From an uncultured delta proteobacterium (GTDB taxonomy: Bacteria > Desulfobacterota > Binatia > DP-6): DNA of 64,000 nucleotides. Made by a program: the position numbers and the translations under genes. The notes under the pieces were generated by a model. The model was not told the origin of the DNA. It saw only the letters and a list, made by a program, of their open reading frames with translations, and made no database searches. Location: the NCBI GenBank assembly GCA_963815115.1, contig CAWFFN010000005.1:736001-800000 (forward strand), given 5' to 3'. How positions within the stretch are numbered: the first letter of the stretch is position 1; each line of letters starts with the position of its first letter. This document shows positions 22,026 through 60,824 of the stretch, in pieces.

Positions 22026-22035
22026 ACGGTCGCTC

Positions 22036-22620: not shown

Positions 22621-22749
22621 GGGCCGGCAATGTGCGCGAAATCGACCCGCTGCGCTAGCTGGTCTGCCTGCCGCTCGCCGGCGGGCACCCCCGGTCCTCG
22701 ATGCCGCGGCGTCGACTGCGGATCGCCGGCGAGCTCGACCGATCTCGCG

Positions 22750-23976
22750 TCAGGGTCCGACCGCGCTGAACATCGCCCCGTTCGCCTTCTTCACCCGGGT
22801 GAGCGCCGTGCCGAAACACGAGGCATCGCTCGTCAGGACCTGAACCGTCGCGCCGCTCTGGCTCTGCAGCGAGGCCGCGATCCCTCGCGGCAAGGTCGAG
22901 GCGGTGTTCTTGCCGATGATCTGGACGTTGCCCTTGCCCAGCTGACCGCCGCCCAGCTTGATCTTCGAGATCCCGTCCGCAGCGGTGCTCTTGTCCGTAT
23001 ACTCGTATCCCTTGGCGGACATCGTGGACCAGCACGATAGTTGGCCGCACAGGCCTCCCGCTCGCGCGACCGTGTACACACCCTTCAGCTGGTTGGCGGC
23101 GTCGTAGATGCAGACCTTGTAGCTCGTCCTCCCCGTGACGGGGTTCCCGAACTCGCTCGCCGTGACGGCCGTCCGCAGCTTCGAGAGCGACAGCCGCAGC
23201 TTTCCCTTGCCGGTCTTCCTCTCACTCACGAGCAGGACGCCCTTCCCGGAAGCGACGCAATCGACGGCCGGAGCGGGTCCGCAGCCGAACAGGGTGGTCG
23301 TCGTGGTCGTACTCGTGGTGGTCGTCGTGATGCTCACCGCTGCCGCGCACTCCGGATCCGCCGCGTCGACCAACCCGTCGCCGTCGTTGTCGAGACCGAC
23401 GGGGTCGGCATCGAGCGGCATGTCTTCATCGGCGCTCGAGCACGGGTTCCTCAGCCTGCTGAACATGGGCTGGTAGTACGGGGGCGCCACATTCTCGCCG
23501 AGCAACGTCGGGAAGGGGTCGGGAGACCCGAGCGCTCCCGACCGGTGGCAGCCCGAGCTCCCGCATGCGGTGATGCCCAGGTTCACGTGGAACCGGCGGA
23601 GGCCGTACGCGGTTGCCTTCGGCTCGCCACTGTCTGGTGACGTCTCGCCGTAGTCCTGGCCGTGACACCCGGCGCAGCCGAAACCTCCGCCGGGGCCGCT
23701 CCAATACGTGCGAACCGGCGTGCTGCCTCCTCCCGCGGAATGACACACGTTGCAGGTCGTGATGCCCAACTGTGTCCGGTGCTGGAAATGCAACGGACCA
23801 TTGCCGCCCTGGAAGCCGTCGTGGCACGAGACGCACCCTTTTCCGGCGCCGTCGTCGTACATCGGATACGCATGCGCGTTCGCGCACCACGCCAGGCACA
23901 GAAGAAAAAGGGCGTGGCCCGTCCGCAGTGCAATCGCCTTCGCGGACGTGCCAGACCTGGATCGGACTCGCGTCAT
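22750..23976 (-). CDS. Secreted multiheme cytochrome c with Ca-binding motif, Thr linker and C-terminal domain
   Basis: CVSCH, CNVCH, CAGCH, CGSSGCH; DNDGDGLVD; poly-Thr. Confidence 0.8.
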   Translation of the reverse strand: MTRVRSRSGTSAKAIALRTGHALFLLCLAWCANAHAYPMYDDGAGKGCVSCHDGFQGGNGPLHFQHRTQLGITTCNVCHSAGGGSTPVRTYWSGPGGGFGCAGCHGQDYGETSPDSGEPKATAYGLRRFHVNLGITACGSSGCHRSGALGSPDPFPTLLGENVAPPYYQPMFSRLRNPCSSADEDMPLDADPVGLDNDGDGLVDAADPECAAAVSITTTTTSTTTTTTLFGCGPAPAVDCVASGKGVLLVSERKTGKGKLRLSLSKLRTAVTASEFGNPVTGRTSYKVCIYDAANQLKGVYTVARAGGLCGQLSCWSTMSAKGYEYTDKSTAADGISKIKLGGGQLGKGNVQIIGKNTASTLPRGIAASLQSQSGATVQVLTSDASCFGTALTRVKKANGAMFSAVGP

Positions 23977-23986
23977 TCACTCCCCC

Positions 23987-26347
23987 TCAATGAACCGACT
24001 CCGAAGCCTTCGCCTCGACGAAGTGGCGCGGAACCTCGTCCATCTTGCCGAGCAGGCGCAGGACGACATCGAGCGCGTTCTGAACGGCCGGATTCGGCTT
24101 CTCGGCAAGCGAACGCCGATAGTAGGACTCCGCTTCTTCGAGCTTCCCTTGCTTCACCAGCGCCTCTGCGAGGTTGTTGCAGGCCGGTGTGTACTTCGGG
24201 TTGATGTCGAGCGCGCTGCGAAACTCCGCCACCGCCTCCTCCGTCCGACCCTGCCGGGCGATCACGTATCCCAGGCCGTTGTGGGTCTCGGCAGTCGGCC
24301 GTCCGGGCAGCGCTCGGCGGTAGTGGCCCTCGGCCTCGGCGAACTTCCCCGCCTGCACGAGCGTGACGGCCAGGTTGATGTGCGCCGAGGCGCAGTTCGC
24401 GTCCAGCTCGAGCGCTTTCCGGTAGTCCTCGAGCGCCTCCGCCGATCTCCCCAGCTGCGCCAGGGTGAAACCGAGGTCGCTGTAGATTTCCGCCTTCGGT
24501 TCGGACTCGAGCGATGCTTCGAAGTGCTTGGCGGCCTCGTCGAGCTGACCGAGCTCGACGAGCGCGAGCGCCAGGTTGTTGTGCGCCTTCGCGTTGCCGG
24601 GATTGGCCGCCAGGGCCCGCCTGTACTCCGGCACCGCGTCCGCGGTCCGTCCGTCCTGGAACAACGTCCATCCCAGTGCATTGCGCAGCTCCGGGTCGTC
24701 CGGAGCGACCTCCAGCCCGCGCCGATAGGCTCGCTCGGCGCCCTCGTGGTTTCCCGTGTGCTCGTTGGCCATCCCGGCCCGCAGAAACGAGTAGGCATCC
24801 AGGAACTGCTCGCGAATCTCGGCAATGGCGTCACCGGGCAGCTTCACGAACTCCGGGATGTTCGCGGCCCGGTCCGCCGAGGTGAATCGCTCGAGGAGGA
24901 CAGGCGGGCTGTCGTTTCCATCCTCGTCGATGTGTGTGAGGAACAGCTGGGTGTACGGCCCGTTGACCTTCGAGGAGAATACCAGCCAGCGGCTGTTCGA
25001 CGACCAGCTGTGCCAGGAGTTCATGCGCGCGGTGTTGTAGCGCAGCCGTCTCGCGACGCCGCCCTCGGCCGGGATGATGTACAGCTCGCTGTCGGGCTGC
25101 AGCAGCATGTAGCTCTTGGCCTTGCAGAAGATGATCCACTTCCCGTCGGGCGAGTACTTCGGGAAGAAGTTGCTCATCCCGTCTCCCGAGGCGCCTCGAA
25201 GCGGCTCGGCCGTTCCGCCCTTCCCGTCGTTGAACGGGACCCTGTAGAGGTCGTAGCGGAAGGGCTTCTTCTGGACCGTGAACTCCGGAACGTCCTTCTG
25301 GTCGACCAACGCGCTGTTCTGCTCGTGGAGGCCCTCCGCGTGGTAGGCCTTCGCCCTGGCGAACACGATGTACTTGCCGTCCGGGCTCCATACCGCGTTG
25401 CTCTGCACGTACTGCGGGTCGTCGGCGCCGGGCAGCGGCGAATACGTCTCGGTCTCCCGATCGTAGACGACGAGGATGCCCTTGATGGGAAAGAAGAGCT
25501 GCGAGAACATCAGGTCGGGCATCGCGACGAACACGGAGCGATCCTTGACCGTGCTGACCACGTATCGTCCCGTCGGCGAGACGCGAGACAACAAGCCGAA
25601 GGTGACCTCGCCGTCGTCACGCTTGTAGTCCGACCACGTGGTGATCTTCGCGTCGTCCATCACCATGTGCTTCGACACGTTCATGATGGCGTAGGCGCCC
25701 TTGTCGTTGCCGTAGTCGACGTCCATCCCGAGCACGCTGCCGTTGTCCGCGAACGAATGACAGTTCCCGCACACGGGGAGGTTCTGCAGCACGATCGGCG
25801 GGCCGGACTCCGAGTCGACGGTTCCGAAGCGCCAGCGGATGCGTGACGGATCCTGTACGGCTTTCAGAAAGGGCAGCGGAACTTCCCGGTAGAACAGGGA
25901 GTCGCCAACCGCGTCCCTCGACGTGCGGATATGCACCGATGCCGGCGAGGCGGTCGCGCGCTTCGTGCGGTCGACACCCGAGACGAGCACCTCGGCATCG
26001 CGCTCCGAGCTGAGCTGCTTGATCAGCCTCCAGCGGTCCTCCGAGGGCCTCCAGTTCGGCGCGTCGACCGACTCTCTCAGAATCTCGCCGCCGGTGAAGT
26101 CTCGCACCATCACGTCCCAGCGATCGGCGCCGCCGGTCTCGTCCTGCCACACGAAGGTCGGAGCGACGCTCTCCGGCGGAAACAGCGTCCCCTCCAGCGG
26201 ATAGGTGATCCGCAGTCCTGCTTCGTTGGCGGCGCCCGTCTCACGCGCGGCGCCGTCGCGAGAGCAACCGGCAAGGAAGACGGCGGCAGCGAGCGCCAGC
26301 GAGACGACGGCGGCAGTGACCGCGCGTGAGCGACGTCCCTTCGGCAT
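23987..26347 (-). CDS. Lipoprotein with CxxCH, PD40/TolB-like propeller and C-terminal TPRs
   Basis: LAGC lipobox; VCGNCHSF; WSPDGKYIVF, YSPDGKWIIF, WSSNSRWLVFSS; repeated HNNL/YRRAL TPR motifs. Confidence 0.88.
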   Translation of the reverse strand: MPKGRRSRAVTAAVVSLALAAAVFLAGCSRDGAARETGAANEAGLRITYPLEGTLFPPESVAPTFVWQDETGGADRWDVMVRDFTGGEILRESVDAPNWRPSEDRWRLIKQLSSERDAEVLVSGVDRTKRATASPASVHIRTSRDAVGDSLFYREVPLPFLKAVQDPSRIRWRFGTVDSESGPPIVLQNLPVCGNCHSFADNGSVLGMDVDYGNDKGAYAIMNVSKHMVMDDAKITTWSDYKRDDGEVTFGLLSRVSPTGRYVVSTVKDRSVFVAMPDLMFSQLFFPIKGILVVYDRETETYSPLPGADDPQYVQSNAVWSPDGKYIVFARAKAYHAEGLHEQNSALVDQKDVPEFTVQKKPFRYDLYRVPFNDGKGGTAEPLRGASGDGMSNFFPKYSPDGKWIIFCKAKSYMLLQPDSELYIIPAEGGVARRLRYNTARMNSWHSWSSNSRWLVFSSKVNGPYTQLFLTHIDEDGNDSPPVLLERFTSADRAANIPEFVKLPGDAIAEIREQFLDAYSFLRAGMANEHTGNHEGAERAYRRGLEVAPDDPELRNALGWTLFQDGRTADAVPEYRRALAANPGNAKAHNNLALALVELGQLDEAAKHFEASLESEPKAEIYSDLGFTLAQLGRSAEALEDYRKALELDANCASAHINLAVTLVQAGKFAEAEGHYRRALPGRPTAETHNGLGYVIARQGRTEEAVAEFRSALDINPKYTPACNNLAEALVKQGKLEEAESYYRRSLAEKPNPAVQNALDVVLRLLGKMDEVPRHFVEAKASESVH

Positions 26348-26355
26348 CTCGCCGA

Positions 26356-27699
26356 CTACGCTCCCGCCGTCGCAGCGGGGAGGAGCGCTATGGCCTCGGT
26401 TTCACAGAGCAGGTCGGGACGGCACAACGGAGCCTCGACGAGCGCGCACGGGAAGCCGTCGAGGCCGCGCGTGCGAAGCATCGAGCGCAGAACCGGCGCA
26501 TCGCTCGGGTTCTTGAGATACGTGACCCCCGACGCGAGGTTCTCGAAGCTGGCGCCCTGCCGGGCGAGCAGCGACGCGATGTTGTCCAGCATGCGATCGA
26601 CCTGGGCCTCGAAGTGTCCCACGTGGACGGTCCGTCCCACTTCGTCGATGCTCGCGGTTCCGGAGACGTAGAGGGTCACCTTGTTCGCGTCGGCGATCCT
26701 CAGGCCGCGCGAGAAGTCCGCACCATAGGTCCACGCTTCGTTGAGCAAGGGGGTGTGAATCGGCGCGATGTCGAGCCCCCGGGAAGACGTTGCCGCATGG
26801 AGGCTCATGGAGAAGTCGTGCGCCCCCGAAAACGGAGCGCCCTGAACGCACGTGCTGGCAGGCCTTCGCTCGATGCCGCAGCGCCGGAAGAACTCGCGCC
26901 GGGCTCTGTTGAGCGCGGCATAGTCCCGGTCGATGTTCCGCACGTGGATCCACGTGCGGACGACGTTGGCGAAGCTCATCCCGGCGTCGGCGAGCAGACC
27001 CTCGGCGACACGGAACATGTGGTACGCCTCCTCGAATGCGTCTTCCCCCGACCCGTAGATGTTCCCGGTGTGCAGGGAGGTCTGGTCGCCCAGGCGGACA
27101 ACCGTCGCGCGCGCTCGCGGTGCGCAGGCTTCGCACGAGCAGGCGGAGGTCCGACTCGCCTCGTACGCCGAGTACGACCCCCCGGAGCGAGGAATCACGG
27201 CCACCGCGGAGAGCTCGAGGTGCGCGCGGCGGTCGAGCGGAGGCTGTCCGATGAACGTCGTCGCCACGGGGCCGGCCTCGAGCCCGGCCGCCCGGACCAC
27301 CCGACAACGTGCGCGACGCACCACCTCGCAGTGCTCTCGGATCCGTCGAAGGAACACGGTCTCGGTGACGATGGCCTCGGGTCCCGCGCCTTCCCGGGCA
27401 AGCGCGGCGAGCAGGGCCTCGTAGAGCGCGTCGGCTTGCCGGGCCGCATCCGGGATCCCCTCGCCCGGCCGGCACTGGATGAACAGCTCATCCGCCATGG
27501 GGCCGCTGAACCGGCGAAGAGCGATCGACGCGCTGCTCGCCTGGACGCGGCGATCGAATGCTGCGGGCTGCGCCGCGGCCGCCTCCCGCCCTGGTGCGAC
27601 CGGCATCCGCCGCGCGCGTGATCCTCGATCGTCCTCGTGGACCCACGCCGCCGGCTGCCGGCGGCGTGGCGTACCGAGGACTTCCACGGCCCGGCTCAT
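26356..27699 (-). CDS. Tandem Rid (YjgF/L-PSP) domain protein
   Basis: FIGQPPL, VVRTWIHV, PASTCVQG, FSRG, YVSGTASID, CRPDLLCETE. Confidence 0.85.
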   Translation of the reverse strand: MSRAVEVLGTPRRRQPAAWVHEDDRGSRARRMPVAPGREAAAAQPAAFDRRVQASSASIALRRFSGPMADELFIQCRPGEGIPDAARQADALYEALLAALAREGAGPEAIVTETVFLRRIREHCEVVRRARCRVVRAAGLEAGPVATTFIGQPPLDRRAHLELSAVAVIPRSGGSYSAYEASRTSACSCEACAPRARATVVRLGDQTSLHTGNIYGSGEDAFEEAYHMFRVAEGLLADAGMSFANVVRTWIHVRNIDRDYAALNRARREFFRRCGIERRPASTCVQGAPFSGAHDFSMSLHAATSSRGLDIAPIHTPLLNEAWTYGADFSRGLRIADANKVTLYVSGTASIDEVGRTVHVGHFEAQVDRMLDNIASLLARQGASFENLASGVTYLKNPSDAPVLRSMLRTRGLDGFPCALVEAPLCRPDLLCETEAIALLPAATAGA

Positions 27700-27704
27700 G
27701 GGCG

Positions 27705-28865
27705 CTACCTGCAGCTCCGGGCCATCAGGGGCGGCACAACCGGCGCCTCGAACGTACCGTACTTGTTGTTCGCGAAGCAGTTCTCGTGACCCGTATCGAA
27801 CATGAGGTACGTCACGTCCGCCGCAAACAGCTCCAGGCCACCGAACGGCGTCGGAGCGGTTCCGTTGCTCTTGAAGACGTTCGAGACGTACGTGTTGTCG
27901 TCCGGGGCGGACTCGACTTGCGGAGGGTTCGATGAGCAGTCGAACTGTGATCCCGCCACCGCCACGCAGTAGTCGACGACCGTGATGCCGTAGAAGTTGT
28001 TCCTCTCGATCCGGTTCTTCTGAATGTTCACGTTGTCGACGCCCAAGACCAGAATGCCGCCACCGGGTGGCAGGGACGCGGACATCGAACCTGGCGGCGC
28101 GTCATTCGGCTCGTTGTTGTCGTGCACGTAGTTGCCGACGATGTCCCAGTTGCCGTCGTTTCCGAGCGGAGGCAGAGACGCTGCCGAAGGATGATAGAGG
28201 CCGATCCCGGTGGTGTTGTGGTGAATGTGGTTGTTCTTCGCCACGATGTTCTTCGAGACCGTGATCTCGAGGCCCGTGGGGCTGTTGTAGAACTCGTTGT
28301 TGAGAACGCGGACGTTCTCGGACGCCTCGATCCACAGCGCGCTGTCTTCCGAGCCGTACGCGACGTTCTTCTTCACGAGGCCGTTCGCCGAAAGGGTCGG
28401 CCAGATCCCGTTCTCCAGGTTGGAGATCGACTCGTTTCTCTCGATATTGAAGTCGTGCACGTGTCGCAGCCAGATGCCGTTGTTCGAGAACCCCTCGACG
28501 GTGAAGCCCTTGATCGTCACGCCGACGACATCGGGATCGCCCGGGTTTGCAGGCTCGACCATGATGCCGTGCTTCTGACCTGGGCCCGGCAGGATGCGGA
28601 CCTTCACCTTTGGCAGCCTGCTCTTGGCGAGCAGCCTCAGTGGCTTGGTGATGCGGACGGCGGCCGTCCCCGCGTGCGTCTCGGTGTAGTCGCCGGGCAT
28701 CACGACGATCGTGTCACCCGGCGACGCAGCGTCGACCGCCTCCTGGATCGACTGTCCGGGCGCTACCCTGGACACGGCCGCCGGGGCCGTCGCGGGGATA
28801 CACCCGAGGGCGAAACCCAAAACCGATACTGCACCAATGCTCAGTCTAGCTTGTGTCACTTTCAT
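27705..28865 (-). CDS. Secreted parallel (right-handed) beta-helix protein
   Basis: Signal peptide; SIQEAVDAASPGDTI...PGDY; Asn/Gly-ladder repeats. Confidence 0.88.
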   Translation of the reverse strand: MKVTQARLSIGAVSVLGFALGCIPATAPAAVSRVAPGQSIQEAVDAASPGDTIVVMPGDYTETHAGTAAVRITKPLRLLAKSRLPKVKVRILPGPGQKHGIMVEPANPGDPDVVGVTIKGFTVEGFSNNGIWLRHVHDFNIERNESISNLENGIWPTLSANGLVKKNVAYGSEDSALWIEASENVRVLNNEFYNSPTGLEITVSKNIVAKNNHIHHNTTGIGLYHPSAASLPPLGNDGNWDIVGNYVHDNNEPNDAPPGSMSASLPPGGGILVLGVDNVNIQKNRIERNNFYGITVVDYCVAVAGSQFDCSSNPPQVESAPDDNTYVSNVFKSNGTAPTPFGGLELFAADVTYLMFDTGHENCFANNKYGTFEAPVVPPLMARSCR

Positions 28866-29062
28866 CCTCTCCTGTGCGCTCGGAAGCGTACGCTCGGTCG
28901 AACTATCGATCGGCCGTGACCGGGTAGATGACCGGCGGTCACGTGCGATCGTCAAATGCCGCCTTCAGACCAGCGCGCGTCACGCCGGGCGCAGCACTTT
29001 AGTCGCACCGCTGTGGATCGTTCTCGGCTTGCCTTACACACGGCGATATCCGCGGCGCCAGG

Positions 29063-29078
29063 TGCAGCATGTGTGCCA
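29063..29078 (-). promoter_or_regulatory. Sigma54-type promoter (-24/-12)
   Basis: Minus strand reads TGGCAC-ACATG-CTGCA, matching TGGCAC-N5-TTGCW spacing, about 200 nt upstream of the beta-helix gene. Confidence 0.65.
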
Positions 29079-29140
29079 GCGGACTCCGCCCGTGGCGGCG
29101 CACTTTCCTTGCACTTCCGCGAACGACGGGCGCGGGTTCG

Positions 29141-29177
29141 TGTCCCCACACGAAACGGTGGGACATTATTTCCCATG
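29141..29177. promoter_or_regulatory. Putative enhancer-binding-protein sites (UAS)
   Basis: TGTCCCCAC...GTGGGACA inverted repeat plus overlapping TGGGA-cattatt-TCCCA, 60-100 nt upstream of the sigma54 motif. Confidence 0.5.
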
Positions 29178-29483
29178 CGCTTCGGGACGCCTGCCGAGCC
29201 CGGTCTGGGCCGCGGCGGCTGGCGTTCGTCGTACCGATGGGTCCGCGGTCGATGCAGGCTATCTGGGATCTACCGGCCCTGGCCTGGCTGGCCGGAGTTC
29301 GGCGGCGCGCTTCTCGTGCGCGGTCGAGGTGGCGAGCGTCTTTCTCGACCTCGATCGTCCCTCCCGGGCTGATCGACGGCTGGCGCACGATACAGCGCCC
29401 GAGACCGCCGCAGGAGAGCGGTGTTCGCTTGCGCCGGGTCGACGTCCACGCCGCCCGGGCGCGGCGCCTTCCCCGGCCGCACC

Positions 29484-29705
29484 TCATCGCCACGGCGACA
29501 CGGCGAGGAAGAGGAGCCACAGCCCGAGCAGCAGAACCAGGGCGAGGCCGAGCAAGAGCGCATTGCGCGCCCACCGCCTGACCATGGCGTCGAGGAACTC
29601 GCGCCAGCCGAGGGTGAGCGGCGGGACGAAGAGCGTCACCAGCGCCGCCCACGCGCCCGCGAGCACGAGCACCAGCGCGACGAGCATGAGGAGGCGAGCA
29701 GGCAT
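29484..29705 (-). CDS. Small two-TM membrane protein, last gene of the ABC operon
   Basis: SD-like GAGGGG then MPARLLMLVALVLVLAG...; two hydrophobic segments; 11 nt after the SBP stop. Confidence 0.6.
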   Translation of the reverse strand: MPARLLMLVALVLVLAGAWAALVTLFVPPLTLGWREFLDAMVRRWARNALLLGLALVLLLGLWLLFLAVSPWR

Positions 29706-29716
29706 CCCCTCACCCC

Positions 29717-30562
29717 TCACAGACCCTTGTCCAGGAACTCGCGCACCACCTCGGCCGGCGACCGGTGATCGCCGTCGACCGCCCGGTTGAGCCGCCGCAT
29801 GGTCGTCGCCGAGATCTTTCCCGCGAGGCCCGCGAGGACGTCGCCGAGGCCGGGGAACTGCTCGAGGGTCGCGCGGCGCACCACCGGCACCGCCTCGTAG
29901 GGCGGGAAGGCATGACGGTCGTCGGTGAGCATGACCAGCGCGAGGGTGTCGATCTGCGCGTCGGTCGCGCTGCCGACGGCGAGGTCGGCCTTCCGCTCCG
30001 CGAGGGCACGGTAGAGGAGGCCCAGGTCCATGGTGCGGACGTCGCGGAACGCGAGGCCATAGGTCCGCTCGAGGGCGGGGAAGCCGTCCGCGCGCTGCTG
30101 GAACTCGTAGCCGAAGGCGGCGGTCCAGTCGCGGGCCGGACCGACCGCCGCGGAGATGGTGCGCACGCCCGCCTCGGGACGCACGACGAGGGCGAACGTG
30201 TTGTCGAAGCCGAGCGGCTCGGTCCAGACCAGCCCGGGCGCGTAGGCCTCGCGGACGCGCGCGAGAACGCGCGCCGGATCGGTATCGGGGGGTTCCTTCA
30301 GCACGGCGGTGAGCGCGGTGCCGGTGTACTCGACGTAGACGTCGATCTGCCCCGCACGCAGGGCCGCGTCGGCCACGAAGGTGCCGCCGAGGTCGAGCTT
30401 GCGCTGGACGGGGATGCCCGCCCGCTCCAGCACCTGCGCCAGCAGCTCCCCGAGGATGCGCTGCTCGGTGAAGTTCTTCGAGCCGACGACCACGCGGTCG
30501 CCGCGGCCGCCACACGCCGTGACGGCGACGAGGAGCAGGACTGCTGCAGCGACGCGCATCAT
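29717..30562 (-). CDS. Betaine/osmoprotectant (OpuC/OsmX-type) ABC substrate-binding lipoprotein
   Basis: VTAC lipobox, VVGSKNFTEQ, YVEYTGT, GFDNTFAL, FPPYEA. Confidence 0.92.
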   Translation of the reverse strand: MMRVAAAVLLLVAVTACGGRGDRVVVGSKNFTEQRILGELLAQVLERAGIPVQRKLDLGGTFVADAALRAGQIDVYVEYTGTALTAVLKEPPDTDPARVLARVREAYAPGLVWTEPLGFDNTFALVVRPEAGVRTISAAVGPARDWTAAFGYEFQQRADGFPALERTYGLAFRDVRTMDLGLLYRALAERKADLAVGSATDAQIDTLALVMLTDDRHAFPPYEAVPVVRRATLEQFPGLGDVLAGLAGKISATTMRRLNRAVDGDHRSPAEVVREFLDKGL

Positions 30563-31167
30563 CGCGGCGGACGCAGGCGGCGCTCCAGGGCGCCGAGAAG
30601 GGAGTCGGCGCCGAGCGCGAGCGCGGCAGCGGGCAGCGCGCCGGCGAGGATGGTGCGGTTGTCCACCATGGCGACGCCGCGGAAGATGAAGACCCCGAGG
30701 CCGCCGGCTCCGATGGCCGCCGCGATCGTCGCCAGGCCGATGCCGATCACGGTGGCGAGCCGGACGCCGGCGAGGATGACGCTGGCTGCGAGCGGCAGCT
30801 CGACGCGGCGGAGCAGCTGGCGGTCGGTCATGCCGAGGCCGCGGCCCGCCTCGCGCACCGCGGGATCGACGCCGCTGATCCCGACCACGGTGTTCCGCAG
30901 GACCGGCAGGACGGAGTAGAGGGTGAGCGCGATCAGCGCGGTGCGCGTCCCGATGCCGCCGAGGAACGGGACCGGGATGAGGAGCCCGAAGAGCGCCAGG
31001 CTCGGAATCGTCTGCACGGCGCTCGCCGCGCCCAGCACGAGGCGCTGCCAGCCGGGCCGCCGGGTGAGCACGATCCCGAGCGGCACGCCGATGGCGGTCG
31101 CGATCCCCACGGAGACGACGACCAGGAGCAGATGGCGGCCGGTCTCGGTCAGGATCTCGGTGGCCAC
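30559..31167 (-). CDS. Osmoprotectant ABC permease
   Basis: QTIPSLALFG, EAGRGLGMT EAA motif, IGAGGLG. Confidence 0.93.
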   Translation of the reverse strand: MATEILTETGRHLLLVVVSVGIATAIGVPLGIVLTRRPGWQRLVLGAASAVQTIPSLALFGLLIPVPFLGGIGTRTALIALTLYSVLPVLRNTVVGISGVDPAVREAGRGLGMTDRQLLRRVELPLAASVILAGVRLATVIGIGLATIAAAIGAGGLGVFIFRGVAMVDNRTILAGALPAAALALGADSLLGALERRLRPPR

Positions 31168-31172
31168 GGCGG

Positions 31173-31913
31173 TCAGTCCTGGCCGGCCTGGAGGAAGGCT
31201 CGCACCGTGGGATCGTCCGTTGCCGCGAGCTGGTCGGGCGTGCCGACCGCGAGGAGCCGGCCATCGGCGAGCAGCGCGAGCCGGTCGGCGACGCGCGCCG
31301 CCTCGCGCAGGTCGTGGGTGACGAAGACGGCCGTCTTCCCGAGCTGCCGCTGGAGCGCGCGGAAGGACTCCTGGAGCTCGCGCCGGGTGATCGGATCGAG
31401 CGCCGCGAAGGGCTCGTCGAGGAGGAGCAGGGGCGGGTCGGCGGCGAGGGCGCGTGCCACGCCGACGCGTTGCCGTTGGCCGCCGGAGAGCTCGTGGGGG
31501 TAGCGTCGACCGTACTCGGCGTCAGGCAGGCCGACGAGCTCGAGCAGCTCCTCCACGCGCGCCCGCCGGCGATTGCCGTCCCAGCCCTCCAGCTCCGGGA
31601 CGATACCCGCGTTCGCCGCGACCGTGAGGTGCGGCAGCAGGCCGATGTCCTGGATGACGTAGCCGGTCCTGCGGCGCAGCCGGATGGGATCCCATTCGGT
31701 GGTGGGACGACCGGCGACGCGCACCGTGCCCGTCGTCGGCAGGAGGAGGGCGTTCACCAGCCGCAGCGCCGTCGTCTTCCCGGAGCCGCTGCGGCCGATG
31801 AGCGCCAGCGTCTCGCCCTCGGCGACATCGAGCCCGAGGCCGTCGAGGATCGGACGTCCCGCCGGCGTGCGCACCGAGGCGCCGTCGTACTCGACGAAGC
31901 CGGAGCCGCTCAT
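31173..31913 (-). CDS. Osmoprotectant ABC ATP-binding subunit
   Basis: GRSGSGKTT, LSGGQRQRVG, LLLDEPF, VTHD. Confidence 0.93.
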   Translation of the reverse strand: MSGSGFVEYDGASVRTPAGRPILDGLGLDVAEGETLALIGRSGSGKTTALRLVNALLLPTTGTVRVAGRPTTEWDPIRLRRRTGYVIQDIGLLPHLTVAANAGIVPELEGWDGNRRRARVEELLELVGLPDAEYGRRYPHELSGGQRQRVGVARALAADPPLLLLDEPFAALDPITRRELQESFRALQRQLGKTAVFVTHDLREAARVADRLALLADGRLLAVGTPDQLAATDDPTVRAFLQAGQD

Positions 31914-32890
31914 GGGCCGAAGCCCGGCGCGGCGCCGTCCACCTGGATGCGCGCCGGACGGGCCGGCGTCTCGCCGGCCCTGGCGATCGGGGCCACGTCG
32001 TTCGGGCCGTCGGGACAGAGGAGCGCCGCGAGCGCCTGGAGCTGCCGGCGACCCACGCCGACCTCGAACATGCCGCCGAGGTAGACCGCGATCCCGCGGG
32101 ACCGGCAGGCCGCCGCCGCCGCCAGCATCTCGAATATCCCGCCCATGCGCGCCGGCTTGAGGTTCGCGGCCACCGGCCGCACGGGCAGCCGGTGGACGTC
32201 GTCGGCAGTGGAGAGGGGAGAGTCCGCGGCGAGCCGGCGCTGCAGATCGCCCGACCACGGCGCCAGGTCCCAGCACGGGTCCTCGACCAGCGCGTCCGGG
32301 AGGATGCGGTGCGCACGCTCGTGGTCGGCGCGCGTGCCGGCGTTCTTCCAGTCGAGTACGGCGATCCGGCCCGACGCGGCGAGGGCGGCGAGGGTGGCAT
32401 CGTCCCACGCCGGGTCGGCGTCGACCTTGAGCTCCACGTTGCCGTGACGGCGCGCCTCGGCGGCGGGGTCGGCGACGCGCCCGAAGGACACGACGTAGCG
32501 CACCGGCCGGGGCGCATGACCGGCGATCTCGAACAGGCTCACGCCGTGCTGGCGCAGCGCCAGATCGATGGCCGCCGCCTCGAGCGCTGCCCGGTCGTAG
32601 GGTTCTGCGATCGAGTCCGCGATGGCGGCGCTCCACGCGTCCAGCCGCCACGTGCCGCGCGGCACGCGGGGCGCGGTCCGGTCACGGAAGGCGCCGTGCT
32701 CGGCCTCGGTCCAGCCGACGTGCTCGCTCCGTCCCGCAGCCCCGTTGCCTCGCAGCGTCAGCCGCGAGCTCGGACGTGGACCGTCGGGATAGGACGGCAC
32801 GTCCACGGCGCCGACCTCGACGCTCACCTGCTCGATGGTCACCGCGAGCGCGCGGAGCGCGGTGCGCAGCGCCTCAGGCGTCGCGAGCAC
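31910..32890 (-). CDS. Uncharacterised enolase-superfamily (MLE/epimerase-like) enzyme
   Basis: ALEAAAIDLAL, ELKVD, LVEDP, LAADSP, NLKPARMGG, GGMFEVGVG; start approximate. Confidence 0.8.
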   Translation of the reverse strand: MLATPEALRTALRALAVTIEQVSVEVGAVDVPSYPDGPRPSSRLTLRGNGAAGRSEHVGWTEAEHGAFRDRTAPRVPRGTWRLDAWSAAIADSIAEPYDRAALEAAAIDLALRQHGVSLFEIAGHAPRPVRYVVSFGRVADPAAEARRHGNVELKVDADPAWDDATLAALAASGRIAVLDWKNAGTRADHERAHRILPDALVEDPCWDLAPWSGDLQRRLAADSPLSTADDVHRLPVRPVAANLKPARMGGIFEMLAAAAACRSRGIAVYLGGMFEVGVGRRQLQALAALLCPDGPNDVAPIARAGETPARPARIQVDGAAPGFGP

Positions 32891-35156
32891 AGCGGAAGCC
32901 GGCGAAGAGCTGGCGGCGCTGCGGCAGGTCCCAGTTGCGGAAGGTATTGCGGGCGACCAGGGGCTGCGTCGCCCACGATCCGCCACGCAGCACCTTGTAA
33001 CCCTTGCCGAAGTGGACCTCGGAGTACTCGGCATAGGGGAAGGCGACGAAGCCCGGATAGGCCGCCAGGTCGCTCGCCGTCCACTCCCACACGTCGCCGA
33101 GGAGCTGGTGGCAGCCGAAGTAGCTCGCGCCCTGCGGGTAGGCGCCGACGGCGGCGGGCGAGAACGTGCGCTGGTCGAGGTTCGCAAGCTCGGGCGTCGG
33201 TGGCGAATCGCCCCAAGGGTAGCGTCTCGGCGTGCCACGTTCCAGGTCCCAGGCCGCCGCCTTCTCCCACTCCGCCTCGCTGGGCAGCCGCTTGCCGATC
33301 CAGCGCGCGTACGCGTCGGCCTCGTACCAGCAGACATGGATCACCGGCTGGTCGAGCGCGAGCGGCACGAGCCGGCCGAAGGCACGCTCGTGCCAGGTTC
33401 CGTCGCTCGCCTGCCACCACTGCGCCGGATGTCTGACGCCCGCGTCGAGCAGCCAGCGCCAGCCGGCCTCCGTCCACAGCTCCCGCCGCCGGTAGCCGCC
33501 GTCCTCCATGAAACGCAGGAAGTCGCCGTTGACGGTGGGGCAGCGGTCGATCCGGAAGCGCGGCACGAAGACCTCGTGCGCCGGCCGCTCGTTGTCGTAG
33601 GCGAAGCGGCGATCGTCGGTTCCCATCAGGAATGCCCCGGCCGGAACGACGACCTCGGCGGCGGCGAGAGGACCGAACGATTCGGGAGGGTCGCAGCGGC
33701 GCGGCAGCTCGTAGACGAGGTCGTCGATGAGCTGGATCGTCTGCAGGATGGTCTCGGTGTGCTGCGCTTCGTGCTGCGCCAGCATCGCGTGCACGAAGCC
33801 ACCGGCGAGCAGCGGGGCGGTGGCGGGGAAGGTCGCGCGCGCCAGCACGGCGAACGTCCGCCGCCGCGTCTCGTCGAAGTATCGTACGCAGTAGGCGCGC
33901 TGCAGCAACGGCAGGCGGGCACGGGTGGCGCGCGGATGGGCGACGGCGTCGTACAGGTGATCGCGCCGCCGGTCCTCGTCGTCGCGGCGGCCCTCGGGAT
34001 CGTGGGCGCGCCGGATCCACTGCTCCTCGAAGTTCGCGATGTGGCCGAGGTCCCAGACGATCGGGCTCATGAGGGTGCTGTGCTGCCGGGTGAGCTGCTC
34101 CTCGGTGAGCGGGGCGACCAGCTCGAGCGTGCGGGCACGCGCTCGCCCGAGCAGGCGCTCGGCCACGAGGCGCGTCGAGGGCGGGGGAGGGGCGGGGCGC
34201 CGGCGCAGCAGGAGCAGCGCGAACGCCTGCGCGGGATCGGTGATGGTCTCGACCGCTTCGAAGCCGTGGCGCGCGGCCGCGGCGGTCATCTCCGGAATCC
34301 GGAACTTGCGGCTCACCTCGGTGAGCACCATCTCGCCGGCCGCGAGGCGGAACGAGCGGTCGAGCTCGGGAAGCTCGATGACCGCCGGGCGGGTGAAGCG
34401 GGCGAAGATGTCGATGCGCTCGCGGCTCTCGTTCCAGTAGGCGACGTGCTCGATGGCGTCGAGATCGAGGCGCGTGCCGAGGTCGCGATTCATGCGGGCG
34501 AAGAGGTTGCGGGTGAAGGCCGCGCTCACCCCGGCCGCGTCGTTGTAGGCCGCTTCGAGGACGGCCGGATCCTTCACCAGGTCGAGGCCGAGGAGCAGGT
34601 GATCGCCGGCCGACAGGCCGTCGGTGACGCGCTCGAGGAACGCGGCGGTCTCGGTGCGGTCGAAGTTGCCGAGGCTGCTGCCGAGGAAGAGCAGCACCAG
34701 GGGCGAGAACTCGCGCAGCCGGGCGAAGGCCTGCTCGTAGGTGCCGGCGAGGGCGCGTACCCGCAGGCTGGGGAAGTCGCCTTCCAGCGTCCGGCACGAG
34801 GCGTCCAGCATGTCGCGGCTGATGTCGACCGGAACGTAGCGCGCTCGCTGGCCGCCGGCGGTCCAGGCGCGCAGCAGGTGGCGCGTCTTGGTCGAGCTGC
34901 CGGAGCCCAGCTCGACGAGGGTCGGCGCTCCCGCGCGCGCGCGCAGCCGGGAAGCGTGCGCGGCGAGCAGCGCATCCTCGGTCCGGGTGAGATAGTATTC
35001 CGGCTGGCGGGTGATGTCCTCGAACAGCCCGCTGCCCTCGGCATCGTACAGGTAGCGGCAGGAGAGCCAGCGCGGCGAGTCGCCCAGACCGCGCGCGATC
35101 GACTGCGCGAACGCCGCGCGGGCCAGCGCGCGGGTACCCAGCTCGTCGCGTGTCAT
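32874..35156 (-). CDS. EgtD-EgtB fusion (histidine N-methyltransferase-like + ergothioneine sulfoxide synthase)
   Basis: N half: YDAEGSGLFEDIT...EYYLTRTE, VELGSGSSTKT, FLGSSLGNF, TEVSRKF. C half: SPIVWDLGH, HEAQHTE, FGE-like domain, GDVWEWT, RNWDLPQRRQLFAGFR. Confidence 0.92.
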   Translation of the reverse strand: MTRDELGTRALARAAFAQSIARGLGDSPRWLSCRYLYDAEGSGLFEDITRQPEYYLTRTEDALLAAHASRLRARAGAPTLVELGSGSSTKTRHLLRAWTAGGQRARYVPVDISRDMLDASCRTLEGDFPSLRVRALAGTYEQAFARLREFSPLVLLFLGSSLGNFDRTETAAFLERVTDGLSAGDHLLLGLDLVKDPAVLEAAYNDAAGVSAAFTRNLFARMNRDLGTRLDLDAIEHVAYWNESRERIDIFARFTRPAVIELPELDRSFRLAAGEMVLTEVSRKFRIPEMTAAAARHGFEAVETITDPAQAFALLLLRRRPAPPPPSTRLVAERLLGRARARTLELVAPLTEEQLTRQHSTLMSPIVWDLGHIANFEEQWIRRAHDPEGRRDDEDRRRDHLYDAVAHPRATRARLPLLQRAYCVRYFDETRRRTFAVLARATFPATAPLLAGGFVHAMLAQHEAQHTETILQTIQLIDDLVYELPRRCDPPESFGPLAAAEVVVPAGAFLMGTDDRRFAYDNERPAHEVFVPRFRIDRCPTVNGDFLRFMEDGGYRRRELWTEAGWRWLLDAGVRHPAQWWQASDGTWHERAFGRLVPLALDQPVIHVCWYEADAYARWIGKRLPSEAEWEKAAAWDLERGTPRRYPWGDSPPTPELANLDQRTFSPAAVGAYPQGASYFGCHQLLGDVWEWTASDLAAYPGFVAFPYAEYSEVHFGKGYKVLRGGSWATQPLVARNTFRNWDLPQRRQLFAGFRCARDA

Positions 35157-35569
35157 GCCGTGGTCGCCTTCCGGATCGCCGCGCCCACGTCCGCCAGCGT
35201 GCGCGACGTGCGTCGAGGGAAGATCGTGTGGATGGTTCCGGCGCCGTCGCCCGGCCATCGCGGCACGATGTGAACGTGAACGTGGGGGACCGTCTGGCCG
35301 GTGGCCTCGCCGTTGTTGATGCCGATCGTGGTGCCGGCCGCGCCCACCGCGAGGCGCACGGGATCGGCGAGCCGGCGCACGAGGCGGAAGAGACCGTCGG
35401 CCGCCGCCGGCTCCAGCGCCTCGATGGTGGGCACATGCGCCGTCGGCACCACGAGCGTGTGGCCATCGGCGAGAGGCTCGAGGTCGAGAAAGGCGACGCC
35501 GTCGGGTGCGCGGGCCACCACCTCGGCGGGTATCTCACCGGCGACGATGCGACAGAAGACGCACGTCAT
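35153..35569 (-). CDS. HIT family nucleotide hydrolase
   Basis: CVFCRI, GQTVPHVHVHIVPR; ATGA overlap with the fusion gene. Confidence 0.93.
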   Translation of the reverse strand: MTCVFCRIVAGEIPAEVVARAPDGVAFLDLEPLADGHTLVVPTAHVPTIEALEPAAADGLFRLVRRLADPVRLAVGAAGTTIGINNGEATGQTVPHVHVHIVPRWPGDGAGTIHTIFPRRTSRTLADVGAAIRKATTA

Positions 35570-35687
35570 CTCCCGGCCTCCTCGTGGCGCGGGTACGCCC
35601 GGCCGCCCCTCGGGGCCAACGCGGCTCGCCTCACCGCGCCGCATCCTGCCAGGTATGGCAAACAAGGGAAGCCCCCTCGGAAGCTGG

Positions 35688-36299
35688 TCAGAGGACTGCG
35701 TCGAGCAACGTTCGCGTGGCCGCGCCAGGGTTTCCGGCCGAGAGAATGGCGCGGATCACGGCGATGCCCCACGCGCCCGCCGCCCGCAGCTCGGGGACGC
35801 TGGCGGCCGTGACTCCGCCGATGGCGAGGACGGGAATGCGCGCTGCCGCCACCGCGCCGCGCAGGCGCGCGGCGCCCTGCGGCGGGCCGAAGGACGTCTT
35901 CGACGGCGTGGCATGGACGGGGCCGAAGAACGCGAAGTCGGCCGTGGCGGCGGCGACCTCCGCCGCCGCGTGCGTCGAGATGCCGATCAGTGCGCCGGCC
36001 GGCAGCAGGCTGCGGACCACGTCCACCGGCATCGACCCGCCGCCGAGGTGCACGCCGTCGGCGCCGGCGGCGAGGGCGACGTCGACGCGGTCGTTCACCA
36101 GCAGCAGCGCGCCCGTACCGGCCGTCAGGGCGCGCAGCCGCTCGGCGAGTACGAGGAGAGGCCGCCCGGGCAGATCCCTTTCCCGAAGCTGCACGGCGGG
36201 CAGCCCGGCGTCGAGCGCCGCCGCGACGACGTCGCACAGGTCGCGCCCGCCGGTGGCATGGCGGTCGGTGACCAGCACGAGCTTCGGTGGCGCCGCCAT
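35688..36299 (-). CDS. thiE: Thiamine-phosphate synthase (ThiE/TenI family)
   Basis: VQLRE, LVNDRVD, ADGVHL, GISTH, TPSK, AIGG. Confidence 0.85.
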   Translation of the reverse strand: MAAPPKLVLVTDRHATGGRDLCDVVAAALDAGLPAVQLRERDLPGRPLLVLAERLRALTAGTGALLLVNDRVDVALAAGADGVHLGGGSMPVDVVRSLLPAGALIGISTHAAAEVAAATADFAFFGPVHATPSKTSFGPPQGAARLRGAVAAARIPVLAIGGVTAASVPELRAAGAWGIAVIRAILSAGNPGAATRTLLDAVL

Positions 36300-36309
36300 C
36301 GCACGCACT

Positions 36310-37830
36310 CTAGCGCAGCCCATGGGGCGGGTCAGTTGCCGGGCGGCGCGTGCTCCCGTCCGCGATCGCGGCGCGGAACGGCTCGAGCTGGGGGTCGCCG
36401 GTCCGCTCCATGTGCGCCAGCAGCAGCCCTGCGAGGTGCTCGACGTCATGGCGATAGGCAGGCGCGTCGATCACGTTGTGACGCTCGTCCGGGTCGCGTT
36501 CCAGGTCGTAGAGGGCGAGGACGGTGCCGAAGACGTACTGCCGGACGCGCGCGGCGACCGCGGCGTCGTGGCGCGCCGCCGCGGCGAGTGCAGGGAACGT
36601 CAGCCCGTTCATCGCCTCCACCCGGAACCGCCTCCGGCCGTCCGCCCACGGCTCGAAGATCAGCGAGCGCGTGTTCGTGCGCACGCAGCGCTGCGGAAAG
36701 GCCGCGCCGCTGCGCACCGTGTTCACGTGGGTGACGACGTGGTCGCGTCCGTCCTGCGTTTCCCCGCGCAGCAGCGGGCCCCAGGAGCGGCCGTCCATGC
36801 CCGCCGGTGGGGCGACCTCGAGCAGCCCCAGGAGCGTCGGCATCAGGTCCACGCTGCTCACCATCGCCTCGTGCGACGCCGCCGGCGGCATGGCGGGATA
36901 GCGCAGGACCACCGGCGACCAGGTGCCGTCGCGATAGACGGTGGCCTTGGCGAACGGGACCGACATGCCGTTGTCGGAGAGGAACACGACCACCGTGTCG
37001 CCGACGTGCCCCGCGGCATCGAGCGCGTCGAGCACCGCGCCGAGGCTCCGGTCCATGCGGGCGACGTTCGCATAGTAGCGCGTGAGCTCCCGGCGGACGG
37101 GCGGCAGGTCTTCCAGGACGCCGGGCACGAGGCCGGGGCCGGCCCGCAGCGCCCAGGCGTGGACCGCGGCCCGCTCGAAACGTCCGCCGACGCCCGACGG
37201 CCATCGGTCCAGATCGCTGCCGAGGAAGGGGCGATGCGGGTCGGTGATGTTGGCGTCGACGAAGAAGGGACGGCCGGCGCGACGCGCTTCGTCGAGGCAG
37301 CGCGTGACGGCCGCGCCGATCCGGGACGGTCGGCGTCCGGAGCCGCGCAGGGCGAGGTCCCACGGGAACTTCGCAGGGGGGCGCATGTGCGACAGCTTGT
37401 TGATCGCGGCCGTGAAGTAGCCCCGTGCCTGCAGGACCTCGACCAGGGTCGGAACGTCGCGGGCGACGGGGCCGAACCCGAGCGCGCCGTTGCGGTGCGG
37501 CACGCGCCCGGTCAGCAGCGCCGCGCGCGACGGCGCGCAGATGGACGCGGTGAGGTGGGCGTTGACGAAGCGATGCGAGGAGCGGGCCAGCGCATCGAGG
37601 CGCGGCGTCGCCGGCATGAGGCTTCCCATCCACCCCGCCGAGTCGGCGTTGAGGTCGTCGGCGGTGATCAGGAGGAGGTTCGGGCGCCGTGGCAGCGGCT
37701 GCTGGGCGGCGGCGGCCGGAGCGCCGCGCGCCGGGCCGGCGCCCGCGACGCTCCACGCGAGCAGCACGGAGAGTCGCGTCGCCCGCAGCAGACCGCCGCA
37801 CGCTGCGCCGCGGGCCGTCCTCGCCACCAT
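36310..37830 (-). CDS. Formylglycine-dependent sulfatase, secreted
   Basis: LLITADDL, CAPSRAALLTGR, SDNG, LYDLERDPDE. Confidence 0.92.
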   Translation of the reverse strand: MVARTARGAACGGLLRATRLSVLLAWSVAGAGPARGAPAAAAQQPLPRRPNLLLITADDLNADSAGWMGSLMPATPRLDALARSSHRFVNAHLTASICAPSRAALLTGRVPHRNGALGFGPVARDVPTLVEVLQARGYFTAAINKLSHMRPPAKFPWDLALRGSGRRPSRIGAAVTRCLDEARRAGRPFFVDANITDPHRPFLGSDLDRWPSGVGGRFERAAVHAWALRAGPGLVPGVLEDLPPVRRELTRYYANVARMDRSLGAVLDALDAAGHVGDTVVVFLSDNGMSVPFAKATVYRDGTWSPVVLRYPAMPPAASHEAMVSSVDLMPTLLGLLEVAPPAGMDGRSWGPLLRGETQDGRDHVVTHVNTVRSGAAFPQRCVRTNTRSLIFEPWADGRRRFRVEAMNGLTFPALAAAARHDAAVAARVRQYVFGTVLALYDLERDPDERHNVIDAPAYRHDVEHLAGLLLAHMERTGDPQLEPFRAAIADGSTRRPATDPPHGLR

Positions 37831-60574: not shown

Positions 60575-60824
60575 CTGGCCAGCCGCGGCTGCCGGCGGCC
60601 TCACAGAGGACAGGGGAACTTCACGCGCGCAGCGCTGCCAGGGGCTCCGCTCCGCGTCGTCCCGCGGTCGTGAGCAGGCGCGGAACTCCGGATGGCGTGC
60701 GAGACGCAAGGGCCGGCCACGATCTCGGCCGGATCGTCGATCTGAAAGACGCGTCGGCGTCGTGGAGCATCTTGCGGAATGCTCAGTCCCGTCGTGGGAT
60801 CGGTGGTGCGTGCCGCGGGATGGC

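Follow-up and report, generated by a model that had tools for sequence, protein, structure and literature searches.

A cluster of minus-strand genes in the window, the whole stretch of 64,000 nucleotides analysed here (contig CAWFFN010000005.1 of an uncultured delta proteobacterium), is predicted to be an ergothioneine biosynthesis operon of non-mycobacterial design. Its core is made up of a gene for a fused EgtD-EgtB protein (760 amino acids, aa; 32874..35156, minus strand) and of a gene for an enolase-superfamily protein assigned, through its homologues, to the DUF8230 family (326 aa; 31910..32890, minus strand, GTG start at 32890). The combination is a putative new variant of the known ergothioneine pathway. 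An earlier note on this DNA had proposed a variant ergothioneine system, and this part of its proposal was supported; both halves of the fusion score above the cut-offs of their family models, and the enolase-type gene is co-conserved with egtDB across distant lineages. Judged from the sequence, DUF8230 may take the alpha-proton of the cysteine moiety of the EgtB sulfoxide product and eliminate the sulfur, replacing both EgtC and EgtE; this tentative reading is given slightly less than an even chance.

The EgtD-EgtB fusion and its association with DUF8230

Gene identities were assigned by Pfam and NCBIfam scans, performed on a gene call based on GC3 (G+C at third codon positions). The EgtD half of the fusion (aa 16-318, about 34203-35111) is a histidine N-alpha-methyltransferase, matching TIGR03438 with a score of 318.5, over a cut-off of 290.9, along model positions 2-300 of 301, and Methyltransf_33 (PF10017) with 332.1 bits. 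The EgtB half (aa 336-758, about 32883-34151) is a sulfoxide synthase composed of DinB_2 and FGE-sulfatase domains, and belongs to type I, with a TIGR03440 score of 393.8 (cut-off 360); the SenA model scores 353.7 on the same half, under its cut-off of 420. The nearest solved structure is that of M. thermoresistibile EgtB (4x8b, 359 bits), while structures of type II EgtB, SenA, OvsA and EgtB-IV score far lower. The fusion is the only egtB and the only egtD of its genome, which is 6.9 Mb in size and 100%-complete.

Scanning one genome per species with an alignment of the enolase-type protein yielded 52 loci, of which all carry a MAG (metagenome-assembled genome) label except one, from a lichen-metagenome bin. 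In 33 of these loci the gene immediately upstream, in the same orientation as the enolase gene, encodes EgtB/EgtD; 30 of the 33 belong to the 43 loci whose upstream flank measures 1500 nt or more, and the other three are short-flank loci showing the end of egtB. Wherever the upstream gene was called (30 of 30) it is a single EgtD-EgtB open reading frame (ORF). Linked loci carry the NCBI labels Candidatus Binatia, 'delta proteobacterium', Haliangiales, Myxococcales/Polyangia, Thermodesulfobacteriota, Limnocylindria and Gemmatimonadales, some of which are unreliable, since several linked genomes fall into one GTDB class. The genomes of five loci (L019, L025, L037, L040 and L067) are placed, against their own NCBI labels, in one class with MAGs labelled Candidatus Binatia; L018, whose genome lies outside the class search, also carries a doubtful label. 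The host is no actinobacterium; the window's own family has a genome in the class holding the Candidatus Binatia MAGs.

Thirteen loci with enough flank are unlinked: L044, from a Binatia MAG, L046, and eleven others of 32-39% identity, labelled Actinobacteria/Actinomycetes, Gaiellaceae or Solirubrobacterales. Four more unlinked loci have less than 1500 nt upstream (L055, L058, L059 and L061; Gaiellales, Gaiellaceae, Thermoleophilia and a Halopenitus archaeon). Samples drawn at phylum level contained the enolase gene in just 2 genomes out of 301 and in 2 out of 151, which suggests a patchy distribution.

The class holding the window's family was sampled with 200 genomes. DUF8230 occurs in 36 of these and adjoins EgtB in 33 of the 36. 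When open frames of at least 740 aa were taken as a proxy for the fusion, EgtB matches in such frames, scoring 355-421 bits, came from DUF8230-positive genomes in all 32 cases; one further genome, G619, has a partial EgtB of the same 355-421-bit class at a contig start and no DUF8230 match.

The genome of the window was searched as a whole for the remaining genes of the mycobacterial pathway, and all matches fell below the curated cut-offs: the best EgtC match reaches 25.9 bits (cut-off 218.65), the best EgtE match 71.6 bits (cut-off 400), and the best EgtA match, an ordinary glutamate-cysteine ligase homologue, 152.1 (cut-off 370.8). The lack of EgtA, EgtC and EgtE, stated in the earlier note for the cluster, was thereby borne out for the entire genome, which does not hold the five-gene mycobacterial set with its EgtC and EgtE. 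In the class sample, EgtC exceeds the cut-off in 27 of the 200 genomes, each time no more than about 200 nt away from a stand-alone EgtB. It does so in none of the 36 DUF8230 genomes, where the best matches below cut-off (199.6, 189.9 and 126.2 bits) are all non-adjacent. EgtC and DUF8230 are mutually exclusive in this sample, and therefore the slot beside EgtB is held by either one or the other. This exclusion is the main support for a late-step role of DUF8230. EgtE over cut-off was found in none of the 33 genomes carrying both DUF8230 and EgtB. Five Solirubrobacterales genomes contain EgtB together with an unlinked DUF8230, none of them with EgtC over cut-off. The EgtC-like gene of 189.9 bits (G008:C10:1577391-1578239, in L029) is encoded on the opposite strand, some 7 kb downstream from the enolase gene of this linked genome.

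Unlinked homologues are found in other gene contexts. In four Gaiellales-type loci (L055, L058, L061 and L063; L058 is from the unpublished genome G030), in genomes without EgtB, they share the catalytic residues and stand beside purQ, purS, purC, purB, purE and purD. Elsewhere a DUF8230 homologue and a C-terminal MoaC domain form one ORF of 576 aa, followed by a MoaB/Mog-like gene (L060:9617-11347), and another homologue starts 1 nt past a MoeA gene (L046:8747-11005); a link of some DUF8230 members to molybdenum-cofactor genes is possible.

The thiol donor of the EgtB half

The residue list of the EgtB iron site (H51, H134 and H138) and the catalytic Tyr377 was taken from PMC4768315. In the excerpts of published work on EgtB that were used, one paper implicates an R87/D416 pair in thiol binding, and one has D416 hydrogen-bonding the glutamyl moiety of gamma-glutamylcysteine. 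The EgtB half of the window retains the equivalents of H51, H134, H138, Y377, Y380, R87, R90, W415, D416 and R420. The window conserves the iron site and Tyr377, as do all of the aligned fusions (31 of 31). It also has the equivalents of R87, R90, Y377, Y380, W415, D416 and R420, a set shared by 29 of the 30 linked fusions; the fusion of L019 deviates at two positions, close to a likely frameshift.

None of 20 stand-alone EgtB-like genes retrieved from the class sample has the full donor-site set. They form four classes: the first has lost Y377 and has F/F/A at 415/416/420; the second has K87 and Y416; the third has H87 with F or Y at 416, and is SenA-like by a published criterion, as given in the portion of its source consulted; the fourth is low-scoring. 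The stand-alone EgtBs adjoining EgtC (L076-L081, in genomes G593, G660, G559, G510, G528 and G451) show Lys in the place of R87, Tyr in that of D416 and a hydrophobic residue in that of R420; they deviate from the mycobacterial gamma-glutamylcysteine site, yet EgtC is kept beside them.

Since the residues by which the mycobacterial enzyme binds the glutamyl and the cysteinyl moiety are kept, we infer that the EgtB domain probably uses gamma-glutamylcysteine, to give hercynyl-gamma-glutamylcysteine sulfoxide. The genome encodes GshB (371 bits) along with the glutamate-cysteine ligase homologue, and gamma-glutamylcysteine is therefore available.

An alternative is that the fusion uses free cysteine, in the manner of fungal Egt1, that a housekeeping pyridoxal phosphate (PLP)-dependent beta-lyase finishes the synthesis, and that DUF8230 acts as a dispensable or non-catalytic partner, such as a scaffold or a regulator. 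The order of the domains, EgtD followed by EgtB, is that of Egt1, a cysteine user according to the consulted part of PMC11237966, and, according to the introduction of PMC13209761, many bacteria reportedly produce ergothioneine while having just egtB and egtD. The equivalent of the glutamyl-binding Asp416 is, on the other side, retained in 30 of 31 fusions, and the three metal ligands of DUF8230 as well as its K155, K245 and R248 are fully conserved down to 32% identity, which argues for a working enzyme. The use of cysteine with an idle DUF8230 is accordingly considered quite unlikely.

Active site and candidate reaction of the DUF8230 protein

The enolase-type protein is barely recognised by existing models: MR_MLE_C scores 26.4, under a cut-off of 29.4, and the best NCBIfam match is with the C-terminal part of the menC model TIGR01928 (44.3 bits, cut-off 200.65). 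The homologues listed (at least 120, 54-90% identical) all carry PF26684 and PF26685 as precomputed domains, corresponding to DUF8230_N and DUF8230_C of Pfam 38.1 (named via homologue P0062). The family is of fairly large size: 940 representative clusters are counted at a threshold of E <= 0.001, and 85 remain at E <= 1e-30. An AF2 model, built on 34 sequences, has a pLDDT of 96.4 and a pTM of 0.94, and is predicted to adopt the capping domain plus TIM-barrel fold of the muconate-lactonizing enzyme (MLE) subgroup. Searching with Foldseek returned at least 500 matches at E <= 0.001; the 35 matches listed, with probability 1.00 and TM scores of 0.65-0.8, are all enolase-superfamily entries, among them N-acylamino-acid racemases (NAAARs), o-succinylbenzoate synthases/N-succinylamino-acid racemases (OSBS/NSAR), dipeptide epimerases and muconate cycloisomerases. 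The assignment to the enolase superfamily is weaker by sequence and secure by the structure of the model.

The menC match raises the question of whether the gene encodes the o-succinylbenzoate synthase MenC of menaquinone synthesis, present here by chance, and one JGI record does name a homologue O-succinylbenzoate synthase. The match is far under the cut-off of its model, the equivalent of the catalytic K163 is an Asp, and MenD is absent from the complete genome (best match 84.6 bits, cut-off 244.2). MenC was rejected on these three points, its probability being negligible.

Residues were placed by phmmer alignments to two NAAARs, among which 2zc8 was matched at 1.1e-12, and by the positions of strands in the AF2 model. 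D180, E203 and D223 align with the D/E/D metal ligands of the NAAARs, as in the MLE subgroup, and fall at the ends of model strands 176-180, 201-203 and 220-222 (strands 3, 4 and 5). The KxK motif is represented by K155-V-D157, with the first Lys kept and the second replaced by Asp, and the DxN motif by D180-x-K182, with Lys in place of Asn. K245 is the strand-6 lysine, contained within a KPARMGG motif, in which R248 (K245-P-A-R248) occupies the position of NSAR R266. In the 46 rows of the family alignment, which excludes seven loci with a short or split gene call (L026, L035, L040, L043, L045, L067 and L069), K155, D157, D180, K182, E203, D204, D223, K245 and R248 are invariant, down to 32% identity. 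Three further residues, R39, R100 and W60, distinguish the EgtDB-linked subfamily. The family therefore has the strand-6 Lys of the MLE subgroup and departs from it by the Asp at the second KxK lysine, found in 46 of 46 rows.

The excerpted text of PMC12006748 describes K163 and K263 of NSAR/OSBS as acid/base catalysts on opposite faces, acting on the D- and the L-substrate respectively; proton exchange by K263 on the L-substrate is enabled by R266, K163 serves as sole general acid/base in the OSBS reaction, and K161 is retained throughout the enolase superfamily. Compared with this scheme, DUF8230 appears to have the L-side machinery and an enolate-stabilising metal site, and to lack the D-side base. 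Such a pattern would be expected for proton abstraction followed by elimination rather than for racemisation. Among the three roles offered in the earlier note for the enolase-type step, racemisation fits less well, because the second lysine that it requires is missing in all 46 rows. A substitute for EgtC and EgtE fits best, in view of the EgtC exclusion and of a genome devoid of both enzymes, its function being predicted from sequence.

The reaction sequence which we propose would start with the conversion of histidine to hercynine by the EgtD half. The type I EgtB half would then form the C-S bond oxidatively with gamma-glutamylcysteine, yielding hercynyl-gamma-glutamylcysteine sulfoxide, an N-acylated amino acid that DUF8230 could bind in the manner of NSAR. 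K245, activated by R248, would remove the alpha-proton of the L-cysteine moiety, and the enolate would be stabilised on a Mg2+ ion held by D180, E203 and D223. With no lysine on the opposite face for reprotonation, the sulfur substituent would be expelled by beta-elimination, to give ergothioneine sulfenic acid and gamma-glutamyl-dehydroalanine. The former would be reduced to ergothioneine by thiols, while the latter would hydrolyse to glutamine and pyruvate. A single PLP-independent enzyme would in this way take the place of EgtC and EgtE.

In its widest form the proposal holds that with DUF8230 the enolase superfamily has its first C-S lyase, metal-dependent and PLP-independent, which joins the EgtC and EgtE steps in one beta-elimination; that it defines a third aerobic ergothioneine route, in Binatia-type, myxobacterial and Gemmatimonadota soil bacteria; and that its relatives outside ergothioneine synthesis form a wider 'half-racemase' lyase family acting on N-acyl amino acids. 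Taken with all its parts, this extension must be regarded as doubtful.

Several points weigh against the replacement of EgtC and EgtE by DUF8230. To our knowledge, no C-S lyase has been described in the enolase superfamily, and the loss of the second KxK lysine could equally mean the use of another base (K182) or another reaction. The choice of gamma-glutamylcysteine as probable donor is read from conserved residues alone, and cysteine-using type I EgtBs have been reported in cyanobacteria. EgtE is missing over cut-off from all 200 genomes of the class sample, those with stand-alone EgtB included (about nine candidates were scored per genome), and therefore its absence does not single out the DUF8230 genomes; generic PLP lyases could perform the last step, and two gamma-glutamyltransferase (GGT) loci of the window's genome are able in principle to remove the gamma-glutamyl group. 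The association itself has exceptions: G017, G538 and G646 carry DUF8230 and EgtB on different contigs (the EgtB match of G646 is cut at a contig end), and in L044 the enolase gene stays with ABC (ATP-binding cassette) transporter genes and not with EgtDB. Finally, the nine catalytic residues are shared by homologues in eight genomes without EgtB over cut-off (no match in G025, G027, G028, G031, G033 and G035, 92.7 bits in G029, and 26.9 bits in G030), from which it follows that the chemistry of the family is not confined to ergothioneine.

Some of these points can be combined in a different assignment, where DUF8230 acts in the ergothioneine pathway by another reaction, either epimerisation of the cysteine or hercynine alpha-carbon via K182 or a tailoring or recycling step, C-S cleavage being left to a generic PLP lyase and gamma-glutamyl removal to GGT. 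The tight adjacency to EgtDB shows a functional link and does not tell which reaction is involved; the closest structures are racemases and epimerases; K182 is invariant, two residues past the first metal ligand, and is a candidate for an alternative acid/base. GGT is present in the genome, and some unlinked lyase must exist in genomes with stand-alone EgtB, where EgtE is missing as well. The catalytic lysine of the D-face is, however, an Asp in 46 of 46 rows, we know of no place for an epimerised intermediate in ergothioneine synthesis, and a tailoring role leaves unexplained the EgtC exclusion, with no overlap between the 36 and the 27 genomes. A different reaction within the pathway is therefore rated as unlikely.

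Longer proteins holding the enolase domain were also sought, as fused forms. Two matches were obtained, of 627 and 1068 aa, and both were rejected as Rosetta-stone fusions, since they are read-throughs with visible frameshifts that span egtB and the genes of the enolase and the ATPase.

Accessory genes, locus layout and comparison with known systems

Next to the EgtDB plus DUF8230 core, the transporter and the HIT protein are optional accessories. The transporter is encoded downstream of the enolase gene by three minus-strand genes: an ABC ATPase of the betaine/proline/choline (ProV/OpuC) type (246 aa, 31173..31913; ABC_tran 119.7 bits), which is devoid of CBS domains and scores 260.6 on TIGR01186, under the subfamily cut-off of 326.6; the sole permease of the cluster (202 aa, 30559..31167; BPD_transp_1 75.1 bits); and a lipoprotein substrate-binding protein (SBP) of the OpuAC/ProX/OpuBC/OpuCC type (281 aa, 29717..30562; OpuAC 185.5 bits). 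A homologous ABC system is found within 6 kb in 20 of the 33 linked loci. Nine linked loci (L029, L030, L036, L039, L041, L042, L043, L045 and L050) have no ABC gene in the available flank, which measures at least 4.5 kb downstream in all of them and is short upstream in L036 (842 nt), L045 (2969 nt) and L041 (3083 nt). Two architectures were observed. In the window and in Binatia-type loci the transporter genes are separate and lie downstream of the enolase gene; in Polyangia-type loci an ATPase and a fused protein of substrate-binding and transmembrane domains are encoded upstream of egtDB. This suggests that transporters were recruited repeatedly, and hence that the link to the pathway is real, if optional.

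The same loci bear on the possibility that the enolase-type enzyme serves the transporter, converting an imported betaine or N-acyl amino acid, and that its position after egtDB reflects operon packing. HpbD provides a precedent, being encoded beside betaine transporters. An ABC ATPase is within 6 kb in the 20 linked loci just mentioned, and in L044 the enolase gene is followed by ABC genes, with no EgtDB in 3.2 kb upstream. Against this stand the nine linked loci without an ABC gene in the flank, the Polyangia-type loci, in which the transporter lies upstream of egtDB and the enolase gene still comes directly after the fusion, and the lack in DUF8230 of the two-lysine set of betaine epimerases. 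A role of the enzyme in the service of the transporter is distinctly improbable.

The SBP matches, among PDB entries, sensors derived from OpuBC (3.8e-50), OpuBC/OpuCC (2e-42), AfProX (8.6e-42) and EgtUC (1.9e-34), and has ProX-like pocket residues (K29, F31, Y79, T82, F119, N121 and F123). Ergothioneine specificity of EgtU depends on G244 and on the F293/Y337 switch, a G244F change costing about 100-fold in affinity, while the Phe/Tyr/Phe pattern is that of the glycine-betaine-binding AfProX, as far as the consulted portion of PMC9732360 reports. The SBP has F31 for G244, Y79 for F293 and F119 for Y337, where equivalence was set by chain offsets and by the GSK.F, EYTGT and F.N.(F/Y) motifs and not by residue-by-residue alignment; the pattern is common to the window and to the other 19 of the 20 linked SBPs with an N-terminus. 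By the published determinants, the SBP is predicted not to be an EgtU. The ABC system would import a quaternary-ammonium compound, such as a betaine; hercynine or ergothioneine would be possible substrates, though not indicated ones. The earlier note had made transport part of a variant ergothioneine/aromatic-betaine system. This side of its proposal was weakened, the transporter being facultative and the SBP lacking the EgtU determinants.

The HIT-family protein (138 aa, 35153..35569, minus strand; Pfam HIT 83.5 bits) has an intact histidine triad (HVHVHIV) and reaches no NCBIfam equivalog cut-off. A homologue is present upstream of the fusion in 11 of the 33 linked loci, so that it too is facultative, where the earlier note had included it in the system. 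Other genes accompany subsets of loci. A gene for a PNPOx-like protein of 157 aa (flavin-binding split barrel) is located between the enolase and ATPase genes in nine Binatia-type loci (e.g. L021:10957-11430), and is absent from the window. Just upstream of Polyangia-type clusters are found a pyridine-nucleotide disulfide oxidoreductase (L048, L049 and L066; L049:3168-4421) and a thioredoxin/DsbA-OsmC fusion (L048 and L050; L050:717-1679); these thiol-redox genes could act on ergothioneine disulfide or sulfenic acid.

The HIT gene, preceded by a GAGGAGG ribosome-binding site, is the first of the coupled set. Start and stop codons overlap as ATGA at three minus-strand junctions (35153-35156, 31910-31913 and 30559-30562), the EgtDB and enolase genes overlap by 17 nt, and the ATPase and permease genes are separated by a 5-nt gap. 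The last candidate is a small hydrophobic ORF (67-73 aa, 29484..29705, minus strand; GC3 coding-like, with a coding score of 22.1), a doubtful gene, located 11 nt (ATG at 29705) or 29 nt (ATG at 29687) from the SBP gene. It belongs to no Pfam or NCBIfam family, and tblastn in the 52 related loci gave no match better than E = 1.6; for this reason six genes (29717-35569) are counted as solid. Of the seven coupled genes described in the earlier note, six and all three ATGA overlaps were confirmed.

Upstream of the HIT gene, past a gap of 118 nt, lie thiE (35688-36299) and a sulfatase gene (36310-37767). A promoter and terminator scan returned no promoter-like site and three terminator-like sites, a number at chance level (1.7 +/- 1.5 expected); one of the three is located between thiE and the HIT gene (minus strand, 35685-35670). 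No RNA data set was listed for 31000-35600, the 16 runs listed having small shares (0.10 or less). In L019-L022, L025 and L040 the SBP gene is directly followed by genes of the LOG family, for an M15 peptidase and for a NUDIX protein, the counterparts of which are found in the window at 20719-22620. The intervening DNA, about 7 kb of lower G+C content (0.65-0.69) at 22700-29480, encodes TPR/PD40, RidA-like and beta-helix proteins, and looks like an insertion. The G+C content of the window is about 72%; at its end (60000-64000) it is 0.63, as compared to about 0.72 elsewhere.

Literature searches, with most subscription journals outside their coverage, returned no paper joining ergothioneine to an enolase-superfamily enzyme or mentioning DUF8230, and those on fusion and neighbourhood terms gave no description of an EgtDB plus DUF8230 module by title or abstract. 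New elements are the exclusion between EgtC and DUF8230, the conserved gamma-glutamylcysteine site, the reading of the active site as that of a putative 'half-racemase', the two transporter architectures and an SBP failing the EgtU determinants. Much studied as an antioxidant, ergothioneine has commercial fermentation routes, and its late steps lack assigned enzymes in many bacteria having only egtB and egtD. If correct, the proposed role of DUF8230 would close this gap in a large group of soil bacteria that are uncultured, supply a Pfam family with a function and the enolase superfamily with a new reaction type, and provide a two-gene production cassette drawing on gamma-glutamylcysteine without EgtC and EgtE.

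Among characterised enzymes, DUF8230 shares with NSAR/OSBS (2zc8, 1sja, 1r0m) the fold, the metal ligands, the first KxK Lys, the KPAR(M/L)GG motif with the strand-6 Lys and the R266-equivalent Arg, and the GGM(F/L)E.G(V/I)GR motif. It differs in having Asp at K163 and Lys for the Asn of DxN, in missing the family-model cut-offs and in being filed apart in Pfam 38.1. The 4-hydroxyproline betaine 2-epimerase HpbD is likewise an MLE-subgroup enzyme encoded beside a betaine-type ABC transporter. Epimerases of its group use two lysines, one of which is missing in DUF8230, whose constant neighbour is EgtDB and not the transporter; at the R266 position HpbD has Lys, according to the same excerpt of PMC12006748. 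With EgtUV (S. pneumoniae EgtU 7txk; L. monocytogenes BilEB) the transporter has in common the OpuAC SBP fold family, the ATPase type, and the carboxylate-binding Lys, the Thr and the Asn at the base of the aromatic cage, kept in the window's SBP; the latter lacks G244/F293/Y337, and permease and SBP are here separate genes.

Fungal Egt1/Egt2 resembles the system of the window in the order of methyltransferase and sulfoxide synthase and in being a short pathway without EgtC. Egt1 is cysteine-dependent, whereas the EgtB part of the fusion is of bacterial type I by its scores, with the glutamyl-binding Asp retained, and no PLP C-S lyase of the Egt2/EgtE type is linked to it. Mycobacterial egtABCDE has in common with the window EgtD and a type I EgtB, including its iron ligands, its catalytic Tyr and the residues for binding gamma-glutamylcysteine; here, in contrast, EgtD and EgtB are one polypeptide, and EgtC, EgtE and a dedicated EgtA are missing. 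Compared to the EgtC-bearing genomes of the class sample, the DUF8230 gene stands beside EgtB in the place of EgtC.

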